Positions 10,920-50,083 of a DNA stretch of 50,083 nucleotides are shown one piece after another. Position 1 is the first letter of the stretch, and the number at the start of each line of letters is the position of its first letter. The stretch is from Nitrospirota bacterium (GTDB lineage: Bacteria; Nitrospirota; Thermodesulfovibrionia; Thermodesulfovibrionales; JdFR-85): contig JAADIE010000109.1 in assembly GCA_013151495.1 (NCBI GenBank), positions 1-50,083 of the forward strand. The letters run 5' to 3'. A program made the position numbers and the translations under genes. The notes beneath the pieces are model-generated. The model was not told where the DNA came from. It did not search any database and saw only the letters and a list, made by a program, of their open reading frames with translations.

Positions 10920-10999
10920 TATCTTCAAATTATTTTTGTATTTTATAAGCGTTATCAATAAGAGGCATCTAAATGCCGTCAAAAGCAGTGAGGTGATCT

Positions 11000-11455
11000 A
11001 TGGCGAAAAAATCCAAAAGACAAGGTAAGACCACAGCGAAACAACAGAAGAAAAGAAACCCCCTTGTTATTGCGGTTGTTGCGATACTTGTTATAGGTGC
11101 AGCTTATGTAGTCTTCTCCGGTGGAGGTAGTCCAGTGAATGCAAAAAAGACCTCCTTTAATATCCAGGGCGGAGAAACAAGGCCGGTACTCGATCCCTAC
11201 CAGTTTACAGGCATGACCAGGGCTGCCTATGCTGCTGCCCAAAAGTATCCTCAGGTACTGGATCAGGTTCGTTGCTATTGTAACTGTGATGAACCTCCCT
11301 TTTATCACAAGAGCCTGCTGAGTTGCTTTGTAGAGACCCACGGAGCTGGCTGAGTACTCTGTCAGGAGGAAGCCCTTAGGGCTGCCCAGCTTTTCAAGGA
11401 AGGCAAAAGCATCAAAGAGATCAAGATTGCTATTGACAGGGAATTCGGCCGTTAA
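11000..11455 (+). CDS. PCYCGC/CYCxC-motif membrane-anchored protein, candidate selenoprotein (TGA 11351-11353 read as Sec)
   Basis: ATG 11000 follows the RBS GAGGTG. The protein has an N-terminal TM anchor and the motif RCYCNCDEPPFYHKSLLSCFVETHGAG, followed by an in-frame TGA. The frame then stays open for 34 codons (VLCQEEALRAAQLFKEGKSIKEIKIAIDREFGR) to TAA 11453-11455. That stretch has no internal ATG/GTG/TTG. Read as Sec, the site forms a U-V-L-C motif. A tRNA-Sec gene is present in the window. Confidence 0.62.
11344..11391 (+). promoter_or_regulatory. candidate SECIS-like stem-loop around/downstream of TGA 11351
   Basis: AGCTGG (11344-11349) is complementary to CCAGCT (11386-11391). An inner hairpin AGCCC-TTA-GGGCT lies at 11371-11383, and its apex is about 22 nt after the TGA. 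It was folded by eye only. Confidence 0.35.
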
Positions 11456-11802
11456 TAGCTGTAGTATGAGGTGATGTTAACAAAGTACTCATAAAGCTCT
11501 GGCTGGTTGAGTGGAGAGAGTTCCCTGGAAAAGGACACCCCCACAAAGTAGATGTTATCCTGCTTTATACTCCAGACAACCTCTCCCTCAATCTGGTCAT
11601 CCTTTTCTATACCCCCCTGAGCTACGAATTTCACCCTTAGTCTGACATGGTCTCCCTTTTTCAAGGGAACAAAGGAGTAAAGACCAATACCATAAAGAGA
11701 GATATTATCAACCATGGTTGTGATGGTTTCATTCTTTGAGGTCTTAACCTCGGCAATTGCAAATATTGGATAGCGAGTGGCCTTTCTTTTAGGCTTATCC
11801 AT
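11452..11802 (-). CDS. PilZ domain protein
   Basis: 116 aa. It carries RKATR (RxxxR) and NISLYG (D/NxSxxG), the c-di-GMP-binding PilZ motifs. Confidence 0.7.
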   Translation of the reverse strand: MDKPKRKATRYPIFAIAEVKTSKNETITTMVDNISLYGIGLYSFVPLKKGDHVRLRVKFVAQGGIEKDDQIEGEVVWSIKQDNIYFVGVSFSRELSPLNQPELYEYFVNITSYYSY

Positions 11803-29217: not shown

Positions 29218-29538
29218 ATGGACCTCTTCAGACAACTCTATGAGGCTTTACTTTTTTCGCCCTTCTTCAGGATCATAATCATCCTGCTAATTGTATTAAT
29301 CCTCCTGAAGCTTTATTTTAAACGCAGGGTACGAGTTTACTCGGATATTGACCTGCTTTACAAGCTTTCAAGAAAGCGGGAATGCAGCGAATACGATATC
29401 TTCAGGGCTGCTGCTGATTTGTGGAATTTTTCAGAAAAAAAGGTGGATGAAGACTTCAAAAGGTATCTTAATGATGGAGATATTCCAAAATATGTAAAAG
29501 ATTTTATGGAGAAGGAGGCACGCAAAGAAGGGCTTTAA
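29218..29538 (+). CDS. hypothetical small membrane protein
   Basis: 106 aa. It has one N-terminal hydrophobic helix (FFRIIIILLIVLILLKLYF) followed by a charged tail. I recognise no family. Confidence 0.4.
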   Translation: MDLFRQLYEALLFSPFFRIIIILLIVLILLKLYFKRRVRVYSDIDLLYKLSRKRECSEYDIFRAAADLWNFSEKKVDEDFKRYLNDGDIPKYVKDFMEKEARKEGL

Positions 29539-31276
29539 CAATATAGATATATTGCTGGGGGAAACGATTAATCCGCTCAGCCTTTTGATTGAGTACCCTC
29601 CAGGCCCTGTTTTTAAATTCAGTATTACCTGTTAACCCTGCAAGTCTGAAAAGGTTCTCTACCATCATTGACACTCCAGATGGCAAAACTGCATCAAAGG
29701 GCTCAACCGGTATATCTATCAGAAACGGCTCTGGCTGGTACAGCCTGAGCCCCTCGGTCTCATCGTAAAAAAGTTCCAAGGCATCTGCGGTAAGCCTTTC
29801 TGCTGTGTCAAGATACTCCTTTTTGCTGGTGCTACCATAGAGATCAAGGAAGGCCCTGCAAAGGGATGCGTAATCATTCAGGGTGCCCTTTACTGCCGCT
29901 TCATCATCGTAAAAGCAATGTCCCAGGGTATCCTGCCTGGCAATGTTTCTTACGAAAAACTCGGCTGCCTTTGTAGCCATTGTTATAAAAGCGTGGTCTC
30001 TGAAGGTATCGTAAGCAACACAGAGGGAACTGATCATAAGCCCGTTCAGGTCTGTAAGCATCTTGGTATCTGTGGCTGGTGGTCTTCTTTTTTTCCTTTC
30101 AGCATAAAGCAGCCTGAGTGCCTCCTTTATGTCTTCCGTTTTGTCAGCGGGCTCAATCATATACAGCACATTCATTCCCGTTTTCTTGCCTGTTGCCTCA
30201 TCAATGTAGTTTCCCTCCTCCTGAATATTGAAGACCCTCATAAAATCATCAACCACATCCTCTGGCAGGATATCCTTAATCTGTGCCTTTGTCCAGAGAT
30301 AGTATCCACCCTCCTGCCCATCCACATCTGCATCTACGGCCGTATAAAAAGTGCCCAGAGGTGAGTAAAGCCATGCCCTCAGAAAATCTAAAATCCCATA
30401 GGCTATTTCCCTGAACAGGCCACTGCCAAACAAACTGAAGGCCCTTGAATAAACCTCAAGCAACAGGGCCTGGTCATAAAGCATCTTTTCAAAATGTGGT
30501 AGCCTCCAGTGTCTGTCCACCGAGTATCTATGAAAACCACCACCTACATGGTCCCATATACCACCTGAGGCCATCCTGGAAAGTGTATTTTTAAGGAATT
30601 CCGAAATCTCTCTATCATCACTTCTTTGTAACCACTCAAGAAGAAAAAGCAGATTAACCGCCATAGGGAACTTGGGGCTTGAACCAAACCCACCGTATTG
30701 TCTATCAAAGTCCTGCCTTAAAAGAGCAATCAGCTGTCCGGGCAGATCCCTGTCCAGAGGCGTACCATGCCTGGATGATGCAGTTTCCTTTAAGGCCTGG
30801 TAAATCCTTTCTGCCTCGGCCGTGATGATTTCCGGTTTTTCCCTCCAGAGCTCAGAAAGCCGGGGCAGCAGCTGAAGCATGCCAGGTATACCATGACGGC
30901 CACTTTTTGGTATGTAGGTAGCAGAAAAAAAGGGTCTACCCTCAGGAGTCAGGAAAATACTAAGTGGCCATCCTCCACGGCCTGTCATTGCCTGACAGAC
31001 CGTCATAAAGACATCATCCACATCTGGCCTTTCCTCTCTGTCAACCTTAATGGATACAAAACTCCTGTTAAGCAGCTCTGCCACCCGGGGGTCTTCGAAG
31101 CACTCCTTTTCCATCACATGACACCAGTGACAGCTACTGTATCCTATAGACAGAAAGATAAGTCGGTTTTCCTTTCTTGCTTTCTCGAAGGCCTGCTCAG
31201 TCCAGGGATACCAATCTACAGGATTACTGGCATGTTGCCTTAGATAAAGGCTCTTTTCATCCTTAAGGAGGTTCAA
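29504..31276 (-). CDS. thioredoxin-domain protein YyaL (DUF255 family)
   Basis: 590 aa. The N-terminus reads SNPVDWYPW..AF..A..E.RLIFLSIGYSSCHWCHVMEKECFED, followed by a large alpha-helical C-terminal domain. Confidence 0.87.
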   Translation of the reverse strand: MNLLKDEKSLYLRQHASNPVDWYPWTEQAFEKARKENRLIFLSIGYSSCHWCHVMEKECFEDPRVAELLNRSFVSIKVDREERPDVDDVFMTVCQAMTGRGGWPLSIFLTPEGRPFFSATYIPKSGRHGIPGMLQLLPRLSELWREKPEIITAEAERIYQALKETASSRHGTPLDRDLPGQLIALLRQDFDRQYGGFGSSPKFPMAVNLLFLLEWLQRSDDREISEFLKNTLSRMASGGIWDHVGGGFHRYSVDRHWRLPHFEKMLYDQALLLEVYSRAFSLFGSGLFREIAYGILDFLRAWLYSPLGTFYTAVDADVDGQEGGYYLWTKAQIKDILPEDVVDDFMRVFNIQEEGNYIDEATGKKTGMNVLYMIEPADKTEDIKEALRLLYAERKKRRPPATDTKMLTDLNGLMISSLCVAYDTFRDHAFITMATKAAEFFVRNIARQDTLGHCFYDDEAAVKGTLNDYASLCRAFLDLYGSTSKKEYLDTAERLTADALELFYDETEGLRLYQPEPFLIDIPVEPFDAVLPSGVSMMVENLFRLAGLTGNTEFKNRAWRVLNQKAERINRFPQQYIYIVKALLCVPPSP

Positions 31277-31894
31277 TCAATAGCCCTCGAAAAAGTCGTA
31301 ATTCCTTGGAATAAGGCCCTCAGGGCTTTTCTCATCGAGGATCATCTGGGCGATGGTCTTTTTGTACTTCTGGTAATAACAGAGTCTCTTCCTGAGATCA
31401 CCCTCTAAGGCTGCAAGCTCTTTGTAGAATTCAGTACGATCAAGCATCCGTTCACTACCAGGGTAGAGCTCTTCAAATCTCCAACAGCCCCTGAACTCCT
31501 CAGCACCTCTGGCAGGACTCACCAGCTTGCCAGGCAGACCATAAAAACGGCAGGCAATGGGTCGGTACTCATAAAGCACACATCTTCCATCAAAGTTAAG
31601 GGGGCAGAATTTTTTTAGATTTAAAACCGGTCTCGATGTTGAGGCATAGGCCCTGTTGTAATCCTCGGCCCTTTGATAGATCTCCTCTTTTACTTCTCTT
31701 TCAAGCTTCCTGAAACCCTCTATCAGATAGAGGCTTTCAACTACAGTAAAGTGTAAAAACACATTCTGGCAACAGTTATCCTTGCAGCCCTCACAGGTAA
31801 AGCCAAGCTCTTCGGCAATCTCAGAGTATGCGTGGTCCACCTTTTTGTATAGCCTGCCGAGTCTTTCAAGATAATCTGATATGTCAATATACAT
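31277..31894 (-). CDS. YkgJ-family (CxxCxxCC) cysteine-cluster protein, paralog 1
   Basis: 205 aa. It has CEGCKDNCC near the N-terminus and CPLNFDGRCVLYEYRPIACRFYGLP. Its stop codon abuts the yyaL start. Confidence 0.7.
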   Translation of the reverse strand: MYIDISDYLERLGRLYKKVDHAYSEIAEELGFTCEGCKDNCCQNVFLHFTVVESLYLIEGFRKLEREVKEEIYQRAEDYNRAYASTSRPVLNLKKFCPLNFDGRCVLYEYRPIACRFYGLPGKLVSPARGAEEFRGCWRFEELYPGSERMLDRTEFYKELAALEGDLRKRLCYYQKYKKTIAQMILDEKSPEGLIPRNYDFFEGY

Positions 31895-46181: not shown

Positions 46182-46279
46182 GGGAGCGGATGGGGTTCTG
46201 GTGTCCCCCCCGGACTTCAAATCCGGTGTTCCCTGCCACAAGTGGGGAAGGTGGGTTCGATTCCCACACGCTCCCGCCA
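46182..46279 (+). tRNA. selC: tRNA-Sec (anticodon UCA)
   Basis: 98 nt, GGGAGCGG...CGCTCCC-G-CCA. The anticodon arm is CCGGA-CTTCAAA-TCCGG with TCA at 46217-46219. The extra arm has an 8-bp stem (TTCCCTGC/GTGGGGAA, including G-U pairs) with loop CACAA. The T arm is GTGGG-TTCGATT-CCCAC. The 7-8 bp acceptor ends with an encoded CCA. It was folded by hand. Confidence 0.9.
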
Positions 46280-46305: not shown

Positions 46306-48348
46306 ATGGGGTATAATACGATCTATCAAAAAGTCCTAATATTAATCTTTAGCCTCTTAATATCCCTTTGCCTTCCAGGAGTTGTACATGCCCAGACCGA
46401 TAAAGAGGAACTTGTTGAAGAACTCTCTGAGTTGAGTATCGAAGAGCTGTTGAATCTGGATGTCCTTACTGTTGAAAAAAGAGCTGAAAAGATTCTCAAT
46501 ACACCAAGCGCTGTTTATGTAATTACTGAAGAGGATATAAGAAGATCTGGTGTAACCACCATCGCTGAAACCCTACGAGGTATTCCTGGTATCCAGGTAA
46601 GCAGGATAGATTCTAATTTGTGGGCAGTCAGTTCAAGGGGATTTAATGAACGATATTCAAACAAACTTCTTGTCATGATAGATGGACGGACTATTTATAC
46701 TCCTATATTTTCAGGTGTATACTGGGATGTACAGGACACGGTGCTTGAGGATATTGACAAGATAGAAGTAGTCAGAGGGCCGGGTTCAACAATATGGGGA
46801 GCAAATGCCGTTAATGGTGTGATTAATGTTCTAACTAAAAATGCAAAACATACCCAGGGACTGCTTTTCTCCCAGGTCCTGGGTAATGAAGATAAAGTAA
46901 TCACTACCCTCCGATATGGTGGCAAGTATAAAGAAGATATATACTGGCGCATATACGGTAAATATACTGACAGAGACAGTTTTGTAGATATAAATAATAA
47001 CGAAAACAATGACAGATGGTATGTCTCAAGGGCCGGTTTCAGGGTTGACTGGCTACCAGGCAGTGGCAGATCCCTGACCTTGCAGGGAGACATATACGAA
47101 GGCAAGGTTCATTCAGAAGAAATTGTTCCTACCTTGAACCCACCTTATTACTTTGATAGCAAAATCATAGAGGATGTTAGTGGCTCAAATATTCTTGGAC
47201 GGTGGCATCAGACCTTCAGTGCAGATTCGGATCTGGTTGTACAGTTCTATTACGATAGGGTAAAAAGAGTCCAGCACTTTAATATACCAGGGTACGAAGA
47301 ATACTACAAGATCGAAACAACTGACCTTGATATTACGCATACATTCAAAGTCTCACGACACCACATAACATGGGGTGGGGGCATACGATACATAACCGAT
47401 CGTATTGACAACAGCTCCCACATTACCTTTAATCCAAAGTCCAGGAGTCAATACATATTTAATGCCTTTGTGCAGGATGAGATAGAGCTTCTAAAAGATC
47501 GTCTTTATCTTACCTTAGGAACCAAGGTCGAACATAACGAGTACACTGATCTTGAGTTCGAACCCACCATCAGGCTGCTCTGGCATCCAGCTGAAGGGAA
47601 GACCCTCTGGGCAGCTGTCTCCAGGGCAGTAAGAACCCCTTCACGTATTGAGATGGACGGTAGAATTAATCAGGCAGTATACCCGGGAAGTCCACCGGTT
47701 ATGATTTCTCTGATATCCAGAGATGGCTTTAAATCTGAAGATGTTATCTCCTATGAAATCGGTTACAGGGCTGGCCTGAGAAACAATATGTATATAGATA
47801 TTGCCACCTTTTATAATGAATACGATAACCTGCGTTCCTTTGAAAAAGGGCCTGTTTTTGTTGAATCTGATCCGGTACCCCATATAGTACAATCCTATCT
47901 TGGTTTCAACAAGGTTTATGGAGAGACCTATGGATTAGAACTGTCTTTTAAATGGAAACCCCTGCAAATCTGGAAGCTGTCTTTTTCTTACTCCTATCTC
48001 CAGATACAGCTACACACCGAAAAAGACAGCACCGATACCATCTCGGAAAGCGCAGAGGGAGAAAGCCCCCATAATCAATTCACTGTAATCTCTTACCTTG
48101 ACATCACCCCTAATCTTGAGTTTGATGCGATAATTCATTATATAGACAATCTGCCCTCTTACAACCTTGGTAGCAACCTGATAACCAATCTCCGGCTTGG
48201 CTGGAATCCATCCAGGAATGTGGAATTTTCACTTTATGTAGAAAACCTCTTTGACAACAAACACCCTGAGATTGCCTCCAAGTATGTATCTGCAGCTACA
48301 GTGCAGATACAGCGCTCGGTATATGCAAAGATGCTTCTCAGGTTCTAA
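46306..48348 (+). CDS. TonB-dependent outer-membrane receptor
   Basis: 680 aa. It has a signal peptide ending VHAQT, a plug domain (VYVITEEDIRRSGVTTIAETLRGIPGIQV, VEVVRGPGSTIWGANAVNGVINVLTK), a long beta-barrel region, and a C-terminal aromatic residue (...LLRF). Confidence 0.88.
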   Translation: MGYNTIYQKVLILIFSLLISLCLPGVVHAQTDKEELVEELSELSIEELLNLDVLTVEKRAEKILNTPSAVYVITEEDIRRSGVTTIAETLRGIPGIQVSRIDSNLWAVSSRGFNERYSNKLLVMIDGRTIYTPIFSGVYWDVQDTVLEDIDKIEVVRGPGSTIWGANAVNGVINVLTKNAKHTQGLLFSQVLGNEDKVITTLRYGGKYKEDIYWRIYGKYTDRDSFVDINNNENNDRWYVSRAGFRVDWLPGSGRSLTLQGDIYEGKVHSEEIVPTLNPPYYFDSKIIEDVSGSNILGRWHQTFSADSDLVVQFYYDRVKRVQHFNIPGYEEYYKIETTDLDITHTFKVSRHHITWGGGIRYITDRIDNSSHITFNPKSRSQYIFNAFVQDEIELLKDRLYLTLGTKVEHNEYTDLEFEPTIRLLWHPAEGKTLWAAVSRAVRTPSRIEMDGRINQAVYPGSPPVMISLISRDGFKSEDVISYEIGYRAGLRNNMYIDIATFYNEYDNLRSFEKGPVFVESDPVPHIVQSYLGFNKVYGETYGLELSFKWKPLQIWKLSFSYSYLQIQLHTEKDSTDTISESAEGESPHNQFTVISYLDITPNLEFDAIIHYIDNLPSYNLGSNLITNLRLGWNPSRNVEFSLYVENLFDNKHPEIASKYVSAATVQIQRSVYAKMLLRF

Positions 48349-49310: not shown

Positions 49311-50083
49311 TCAGATCTCAAAGCCTTCACCATAGGAAGGTAAATGAATCTTTCTGACAAGTCCATCCTCTAAAAGGGCCTTTTTTAATTCCCTCTTTGG
49401 TTTTTCCTCACCATGCACTATAAAAAGCTCATCAACTACTCCTGCTGACTTAACCCAGGCCTTAAGGGTTTCTTTATCAGCATGTGAGGAAAAACCACCT
49501 ATTGTATGGATGCTTGCCTTTACCCTGTAGGTCTCACCAAAGATCTTTACTATTTTTTCACCATCCACCAGTTTTCTGCCAAGCGTGCCCTCAGCCTGGT
49601 AGCCAACAAATACCACAGCAGATTCAGATCGCCATATGTTGTGTTTTAGGTGATGTTTAATCCTTCCACCTGTACACATGCCAGAGCCAGCAATCACAAT
49701 AGCGTGGGATTTGATAAAGTTTATTTTTTTCGATTCCTCAGGCTCTCTGGTAAACTCAAGCCCTGGAAAATAAAAGGGATCCTCACCCCTTTTTATTAAC
49801 TCTGCAGTCTCCTGGTCATAACATTCAGGGTGGCGCCTCATTATCTCGGTCACTGTAATTCCCATGGGGGTATCAAGAAACACCCTGCAGGCCGGAAGTT
49901 CCCCCTTTGAGTAAAGTAACCTGAATACATAAAGCAGGTCCTGGGCCCTTTCTATTGCAAAGGCAGGTATAAGCACATTTCCACCTCTACTGCATACTTC
50001 TTTAATAACCTCTGCAAGCTCCTTTACGGATTCATCAAAGCCCTTGTGATTTCTATTGCCATATGTGCTTTCTATAATCATTA
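49311..50083 (-). CDS. beta-CASP family MBL-fold ribonuclease (N-terminal MBL part lies beyond the right edge)
   Basis: The C-terminal 257 codons include ESTYGNRNH, a beta-CASP block (VLIPAFAIERAQDLL), GGFSSHAD, and FIVHGE. The frame remains open to the window end. Confidence 0.8.
   Translation of the reverse strand, partial: MIIESTYGNRNHKGFDESVKELAEVIKEVCSRGGNVLIPAFAIERAQDLLYVFRLLYSKGELPACRVFLDTPMGITVTEIMRRHPECYDQETAELIKRGEDPFYFPGLEFTREPEESKKINFIKSHAIVIAGSGMCTGGRIKHHLKHNIWRSESAVVFVGYQAEGTLGRKLVDGEKIVKIFGETYRVKASIHTIGGFSSHADKETLKAWVKSAGVVDELFIVHGEEKPKRELKKALLEDGLVRKIHLPSYGEGFEI

Follow-up and report, generated by a model that had tools for sequence, protein, structure and literature searches.

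The gene at positions 11000–11455 of the DNA stretch studied here, a 50,083-nucleotide window from contig JAADIE010000109.1 of a Nitrospirota bacterium, almost certainly encodes a member of the CYCXC (OS_HP4/PF13798) selenoprotein family, and comparison with related sequences indicates that its in-frame UGA at 11351–11353 is decoded as selenocysteine (Sec). An earlier sequence-only reading of the window had proposed that a UxxC selenoprotein was missed here by open reading frame (ORF) calling, and had left in doubt whether a Sec form was already catalogued. That doubt can now be settled, as the family has its own profile, NF041379, and appears in two reviews. The proposal is correct yet not new, because the CYCXC/OS_HP4 selenoprotein family has already been catalogued.

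Family identity and reading frame of the gene

Translation of 11000–11455 with TGA as U gives a product of 151 amino acids (aa), and profile searches of this product, with U read as C, leave little doubt about its family. NCBIfam NF041379 ('OS_HP4_CYCXC, CYCXC family (seleno)protein') was matched with 122.7 bits against an equivalog cut-off of 90, residues 60–149 covering profile positions 1–89 of 90, and Pfam PF13798 (PCYCGC) with 43.3 bits against 25 over residues 73–149, a match that extends through the tail beyond the TGA. PF13798 was likewise matched by all 23 members of family alignment A3. The CYCxC feature is present as C92-Y-C94-N-C96, with the three Cys residues invariant in all alignments, and U118-V-L-C121 lies some 22 residues further on. 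Three Cys homologues (P0122, P0157 and P0199) carry the NCBI name 'CYCXC family (seleno)protein'.

The literature agrees with this assignment. A 2022 review in Biomolecules lists 'Hypothetical protein OS_HP4, UxxC' (PMC9312934), and a 2026 review equates OS_HP4 with the CYCXC family, PF13798, with a UxxC motif and one Sec (PMC13188914). Both credit the 2007 study of the Olavius algarvensis delta-1 symbiont (Zhang & Gladyshev 2007, NAR 35:4952). The main text of that paper names OS_HP1-3 and not OS_HP4, and so the attribution of OS_HP4 rests on the citations in the reviews.

Automatic gene callers report 11000–11353 only, a product of 117 aa, and the ORF that starts at ATG 11000 indeed closes at the TGA, right behind ...SCFVETHGAG (...RCYCNCDEPPFYHKSLLSCFVETHGAG). 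The sequence-only reading had already pointed to an open frame beyond it; this extends over 33 codons (VLCQEEALRAAQLFKEGKSIKEIKIAIDREFGR) up to the TAA at 11453–11455, and there is no in-frame ATG, GTG or TTG within this segment. It was also right that the segment fills the space before the convergent PilZ gene (11452–11802, minus strand; Pfam PilZ), the two stops overlapping by 2 nucleotides (nt). A sequencing error is excluded, since the identical gene with its neighbours is found in two independent assemblies, Logan SRR33956869 (L082) and GCA_054046125.1 (L083; JBPLID010000044.1), and both copies are called as a 117-aa product cut at the Sec codon. From base composition alone, a run of 33 stop-free codons has a probability of about 0.17. 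The evidence within the window is not significant when taken by itself, and it is the comparative data that make the case for Sec.

The codon at the Sec position and the conserved tail

A homologue search of 5.8 billion proteins returned 244 homologues, nearly all of which are 110–126 aa long, cover 77% of the query and end at ...HG(A)G. They do so because gene callers stop at the conserved TGA. The rare full-length proteins in the database are Cys forms, for example P0029 (...HGAGCSICQEEA...IDRRFG), together with one Trp form (P0007). In P0029, P0122 and P0172 a CxxC stands in place of the UxxC of the window, and the suggestion made in the sequence-only reading, that Cys-containing members have CxxC at the equivalent place, was correct.

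At the level of DNA, homologues do not end at HGAG. The DNA of 80 related loci from species-representative genomes was compared (81 sequences including the window), spanning Nitrospirota/Thermodesulfovibrionia, Thermodesulfobacteriota, Binatia, Rokubacteria, Lambdaproteobacteria, Verrucomicrobiia and others, and it continues into a tail of about 33 aa, with tblastn alignments reaching query residues 150–151 in almost all of the 80 loci. The codon aligned with the TGA of the window is TGA in 65 of the 81 sequences (64 loci and the window itself, all of the U..C type). Two more have TGA both here and in place of the partner Cys codon (UxxU), and in 13 the codon is TGC or TGT, encoding Cys; in the one remaining locus the sequence is interrupted and the codon could not be resolved. 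Sec is strongly preferred in this clade: the retrieved genomes have 67 Sec forms and 13 Cys forms.

The tail xxCQxEALRxxQLxxEGKSIxEIKxAIDxEFG is kept in every resolved locus. Pairwise divergence among 58 UxxC Sec forms averaged 0.32/0.19/0.49 at codon positions 1/2/3 over the 30 codons that follow the TGA, compared with 0.19/0.16/0.58 upstream of the TGA. Judged by this coding-type variability at third positions, which resembles that of the upstream part, the tail beyond the TGA is translated. Eight positions are invariant in alignment A3, namely C92, C94, C96, H103, C109, H114, U/C118 and C121.

Two further observations concern the residue at this position. The Trp form, P0007 (152 aa, on a Logan contig), has TGG at the Sec/Cys position (...HGET-W-DLCQEEALRAAQL...), one substitution away from TGA, and may reflect an error in sequencing or else a variant that is truly inactive. 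Several genomes also carry paralogue pairs, often with a Sec form beside a Cys form that has diverged further (...SIGHKSLLSCFTD.HAANCGICQ...FWRPLR): CP070737.1 (UxxU in L040 with Cys in L057), CAZVHL01 (Sec in L025 with Cys in L064) and JBFGJU01 (UxxU in L045 with Cys in L054) are of this kind, and in CAYFYW01 both copies (L056 and L060) are Sec forms.

A SECIS-type hairpin beyond the UGA

The RNA just downstream of the UGA carries a hairpin of the kind expected of a selenocysteine insertion sequence (SECIS). In the window, 11368–11375 pairs with 11386–11379 around a loop at 11376–11378; one of the eight stem positions is an A-G mismatch. Counted from the UGA, the stem begins at 14 nt and the loop at 22 nt. 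The 58 UxxC Sec forms align without gaps (alignment A2), with the TGA at columns 7–9 and hairpin columns 24–31 facing columns 42–35. Standard pairs occupy 86.4% of the cells of this hairpin, vs 33–61% after shifting the 3' arm by 1–3 columns, and compensatory double changes are found at four of the eight pairs. The observed covariation score was reached by none of 500 shuffles, and RNAalifold independently gives the same helix. Columns 24 and 42 each fall on a third codon position, and the pair that they form changes between G-C, U-A and C-G. A stem at 14 nt with a loop at 22 nt recurs in 39–41 of the 64 Sec forms, and at least 39 of these 64 homologues have a loop containing G at the hairpin position (UGA in 23, UGGAU in 7, UGC in 5, GGC in 3 and GGU in 1). 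The bSECISearch consensus that Zhang and Gladyshev described in 2005 reportedly places the apical loop 16–37 nt from the UGA.

The sequence-only reading had drawn a larger stem-loop, spanning 11344–11391, with the TGA at its base and its apex about 22 nt downstream. The apex and the inner hairpin stand. The outer stem that would enclose the UGA (11344–11349/11384–11390) was rejected: 66% of its cells are paired, a level matched by 140 of 500 shuffles, and there is no excess covariation. The folding of a 71-nt region around the TGA is no more stable than that of shuffled sequence (z=+0.77). Searches of Rfam, run on the whole window at gathering thresholds and on 11250–11500 at E<=10, returned noise only, with no match to a SECIS model. 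To our knowledge, Rfam holds no generic bacterial SECIS model, so this null result is uninformative.

The best local hairpin is more stable in Sec forms (median -9.6 kcal/mol) than in the 13 Cys forms (-6.0; Mann-Whitney p=1.2e-4), which fits a bacterial SECIS. Several points weigh against Sec decoding directed by this hairpin. The energy comparison was not corrected for phylogeny. The hairpin of the window itself, at -10 kcal/mol, is only marginally better than its shuffles (z=-1.39, 18/200), and its UUA loop is without the G usual in a bacterial SECIS unless the closing C-G pair opens. Covariation is modest (the majority of pairs are invariant or G-C/G-U) and is confounded by the coding constraint on EALRA. 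Finally, selA, selB and selD were not found among the ORFs of the 50-kb window, where the tRNA-Sec gene is the sole Sec-machinery gene found. This gene had been noticed in the sequence-only reading, and ARAGORN and Rfam both recover it (Table 1). If the UGA at 11351 is decoded as Sec, then selA, selB and selD must lie elsewhere in the genome.

Two variant forms of the motif turned up among the loci. In the UxxU variant (...HAAA-U-NL-U-QDEAL...), seen at L040:3295-3306 (CP070737.1, Nitrospiraceae bin398) and L045:3295-3306 (JBFGJU010000010.1), the hairpin is shifted downstream, by more than in the UxxxC variant below, and its loop is GGUC. The hairpins of the two loci (CCUAGC-GGUC-GCUAGG and CCUGGC-GGUC-GCCAGG) differ by one compensatory A-U/G-C change. 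The UxxxC variant has one extra residue (e.g. U-I-N-I-C) and is carried by seven loci (L062, L066, L067, L068, L074, L075 and L080) from metagenome-assembled genomes of Verrucomicrobiia, Binatia, Syntrophobacteraceae and Deltaproteobacteria. Here the hairpin lies 3–4 nt further downstream, with its stem 18 nt and a UGGAU loop 25 nt after the UGA, so that the element keeps its place relative to the coding sequence that follows and not its distance from the UGA. Both variants, the first with two Sec residues, are uncatalogued; the reviews give only UxxC with one Sec.

Alternative explanations of the TGA

Could the TGA be a genuine stop, with a protein of 117 aa followed by 100 nt of non-coding sequence or of a decaying C-terminus left over from an ancestral Cys form? 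Every automatic gene call does end at this codon, an open run of the length seen here is not rare by composition, and the window ORFs offer none of selA/B/D. A remnant would, however, gather stops and frameshifts, and the tail is instead open and conserved as protein in 80 loci from several phyla, with divergence biased to third positions. The Pfam and NCBIfam domain is also complete only with residues past the TGA, namely the invariant Cys121 and a helix, and we consider a genuine stop to be very improbable. The same degree of doubt applies to the suggestion that the UGA is read through without selenium, whether by near-cognate insertion of Trp or Cys or under a reassigned code, to give a full-length protein that is not a selenoprotein. 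The Trp residue in P0007 shows that a residue other than Sec or Cys is tolerated in at least one sequence. Yet the alternative residue in 13 loci is Cys and not Trp, and the genetic code is standard, TGA being the ordinary stop of 13 of the window's 35 long ORFs. The window also holds a tRNA-Sec gene, and a conserved hairpin stands at SECIS spacing and is weaker in Cys forms.

Gene context of the CYCXC family

In the window, the neighbours of the CYCXC gene are tsaD, PilZ and fumarase genes, which are not shared with the related loci. Two other arrangements recur among those loci. In about 20 of them the gene is preceded, on the same strand, by an OmpR-type response regulator, a HAMP/HisKA kinase and a secreted CPLC protein of about 109 aa without a Pfam match (for example L019:2045-2374, L025:1202-2563 and L033:516-1208). 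This block, which the window lacks, could in that clade partner the CYCXC protein in regulation or in function.

In 14 loci, including L010, L019, L025, L027, L028, L038, L039, L041, L042, L043, L049 and L057, a convergent gene on the minus strand, approximately 0.3–1.8 kb downstream of the CYCXC gene, encodes a TlpA/ResA-like (AhpC-TSA) redoxin. Its ORF stops at a TGA in the active site (...LLSFWATW-TGA-PWCRKELPSLE...) that is followed by more than 70 open codons, which points to a second selenoprotein, of W-U-x-x-C type (FWATW-U-PWC), beside the first. No Sec-type TlpA-like redoxin was found in the window by tblastn. Each of the recurrent contexts, upstream block and downstream redoxin, is seen in only about a quarter of the loci and may reflect shared ancestry.

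Proposed decoding and possible function

By analogy with the established bacterial pathway, SelB-GTP-Sec-tRNASec would bind the in-frame hairpin and deliver Sec to codon 118 when the UGA occupies the ribosomal A site. The resulting protein is predicted to be held in the membrane by an N-in signal anchor, the segment PLVIAVVAILVIGAAYVVF, based on its approximately 19 hydrophobic residues and the positive-inside rule. All homologues have an equivalent of this hydrophobic segment, or in some cases a lipobox instead (LSSCDSA, ITGCGES, LAGCSGE), and the combination of a signal anchor in the window protein and a lipobox in several homologues suggests that the Cys/Sec domain lies outside the cytoplasm. 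This small, all-helical domain would there present the eight invariant Cys, Sec and His residues as soft ligands.

Reactive residues of CxxC redox motifs usually sit just before a long helix. An AlphaFold2 model of P0172, the closest natural Cys form (49% identical; multiple sequence alignment of 61 sequences), is all-helical, with a predicted local distance difference test score of 86–98 over the domain, and its Sec-equivalent residue, Cys90, directly precedes helix 91–105. From this position and the eight invariant Cys/Sec/His residues we infer that U118-x-x-C121 may be an extracytoplasmic centre that is either selenol/thiol redox-active or handles soft metals, and that the CYCxC/His cluster may bind metal or serve as a further redox motif. 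These proposals draw on motif, topology and a model of a homologue that shares 49% identity, which counts against them, and the choice between redox and metal function is much less certain than the identity of the protein and its Sec decoding.

It is possible, although we would not favour it on balance, that UxxC and CYCxC/His together form a binding or trafficking site for soft metals (Cu, Zn, Hg or Fe-S) and not a thiol/selenol exchange centre. Eight invariant ligands within 30 residues would suit such a site, as would the OmpR-type two-component system upstream in about 20 loci, an arrangement typical of envelope metal-stress sensing. Metal-related selenoproteins are also numerous in the table of the reviews (MerT, ZntA-type ATPase, CopZ-like, YHS and CobW-like; PMC9312934, PMC13188914), and a Firmicute PCYCGC lipoprotein adjoins an Fe3+ substrate-binding protein (PMC13068155). 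On the other hand, Sec most often serves redox catalysis, the Sec-equivalent residue stands at the N-terminal end of a helix, as the reactive residue of CxxC redox motifs does, and the neighbour in 14 loci is a Sec-containing TlpA-like redoxin. The two readings are not mutually exclusive.

A more specific redox reading, that the domain is distantly homologous to CcmH/NrfF, the periplasmic thiol-disulfide oxidoreductase that takes part in cytochrome c maturation, seems unlikely to us. The top two Protein Data Bank (PDB) matches of Foldseek to the P0172 model are both CcmH (2kw0 and 2hl7; prob 0.72/0.57, template modelling score 0.54–0.56), but with E-values above 1. Comparison of profile A3 with E. 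coli CcmH by hhalign gave a probability of 75% over 72 columns (0.6% for the reversed-sequence control), but the deeper profile A6 aligns over the last 35 columns only, at 57%, and hhalign sets the CPKC of CcmH under CYCxC and not under UxxC. The common architecture (membrane-anchored, periplasmic, small and helical, with CxxC) and the TlpA/CcmG-like neighbour in 14 loci fit a CcmH relative. Against this, Pfam PF03918 was matched by none of the 23 members at E<=10, and the EGKSxxEI helix of CcmH also matches a designed helical repeat protein, which suggests that the shared motif may be generic. A search of PDB sequences with the family profile found no relative. Given the Foldseek, hhalign and PF03918 results, controls included, we keep CcmH as an analogy only.

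Bringing these strands together, one might picture the CYCXC/PCYCGC family as a CcmH-like extracytoplasmic oxidoreductase of the thiol/selenol-disulfide type that works with the adjacent Sec-TlpA/CcmG-like redoxin as a selenium-based periplasmic relay in many Nitrospirota. We regard this as a doubtful suggestion; if true, the relay of CYCXC protein and Sec redoxin could serve, for example, cytochrome or metalloprotein maturation.

Significance for annotation and for the family

In both public copies of this gene the 117-aa call removes the Sec residue, its partner Cys and the last helix, and the same loss affects most of the 244 homologues. Such truncation at the Sec codon implies that selenoproteome counts for Nitrospirota-type genomes will be too low unless Sec-aware models such as NF041379 are used. 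The CYCXC family occurs widely among anaerobic and microaerophilic lineages. What is known of the family is left unchanged by our analysis; its comparative data on the SECIS, together with the weak lead towards CcmH and TlpA, offer concrete points from which to start. The UxxU and UxxxC variants, the Sec-TlpA adjacency and the weakly CcmH-like fold could help in assigning a function to the family.

Other features of the window

Coordinates of the gene, its parts and the tRNA-Sec gene are collected in Table 1. A second read-through candidate, at TGA 31277–31279 (window 29504–31894, minus strand), has a 205-aa ORF followed in the same frame by a 590-aa ORF with no gap. It was rejected in favour of two abutting genes, because the DUF255/Thioredox_DsbH match of the 590-aa ORF begins at its residue 2 and its TTG start abuts the stop of the first ORF.

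Directly 3' of the tRNA-Sec gene, 46306–48348 (plus strand) encodes a TonB-dependent receptor that scores 636.3 bits against a cut-off of 645 for NF053590 (TOL_0244 family) and has weak matches to the NCBIfam Sec-motif TonB models (CU, PCPU, PUIUD and FCYXU types). At 49311–50081 (minus strand, running off the end of the window) lies a partial beta-CASP/MBL ribonuclease, whose best NCBIfam match is 'type VII CRISPR-associated protein Cas14' at 237.6 bits, far under the cut-off of 800; this is probably an ordinary aCPSF1/RNase J-like enzyme.

Table 1. Positions of the CYCXC gene, its sequence features and the tRNA-Sec gene in the window
Feature	Position	Strand	Basis
Putative Shine-Dalgarno-like GAGGTGA, 4–10 nt before ATG	10990..10996	+	read from sequence
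Complete coding sequence, CYCXC-family selenoprotein, 151 aa, Sec at residue 118	11000..11455	+	translation, profile matches, tail kept
N-terminal hydrophobic segment, residues 21–39, PLVIAVVAILVIGAAYVVF, after Lys/Arg-rich tail	11060..11116	+	sequence
CYCNC motif (C92, C94, C96), family signature	11273..11287	+	invariant columns, alignments A1, A3, A5, A6
UGA read as selenocysteine, U118, opening the U-V-L-C motif	11351..11353	+	codon alignment
TGT, Cys121, partner of Sec118 in UxxC	11360..11362	+	invariant Cys in A3; itself TGA in L040, L045
SECIS-type hairpin GGAAGCCC / UUA / GGGCUGCC	11368..11386	+	covariation, RNAalifold, fixed spacing
tRNA-Sec (selC), anticodon UCA	46182..46279	+	ARAGORN; Rfam RF01852, 75.7 bits vs gathering score 47

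Comparison with known systems

As an RNA element, the hairpin resembles the bacterial SECIS of the E. coli fdhF type in being an in-frame hairpin just 3' of the UGA with its loop at 22 nt, and differs from it in the window by its short stem (8 bp) and its 3-nt loop, UUA. Among proteins, CcmH/NrfF (2kw0, 2hl7) are the best structural neighbours and are similarly small, helical and non-thioredoxin, membrane-anchored and periplasmic with a CxxC, whereas the CYCXC family has an additional CYCxC...H...C...H cluster. The likeness is weak and would be one of functional analogy and not of family membership.

The PCYCGC proteins of PF13798 (Cys forms such as the lipoproteins of Bacillales) share the domain, including the C-terminal CxxC helix, and an extracytoplasmic location. 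The Bacillales-type proteins have Cys and PCYCGC where the window protein has Sec and RCYCNC, and its Pfam score is moderate (43 bits). The closest comparison is with the OS_HP4/NF041379 family itself, with which the window protein has in common the CYCxC, the UxxC with Cys-form homologues, the single Sec, the length and the domain limits. From that family it shows no essential difference, and it can be regarded as a further member, from a Nitrospirota/Thermodesulfovibrionia-like genome.

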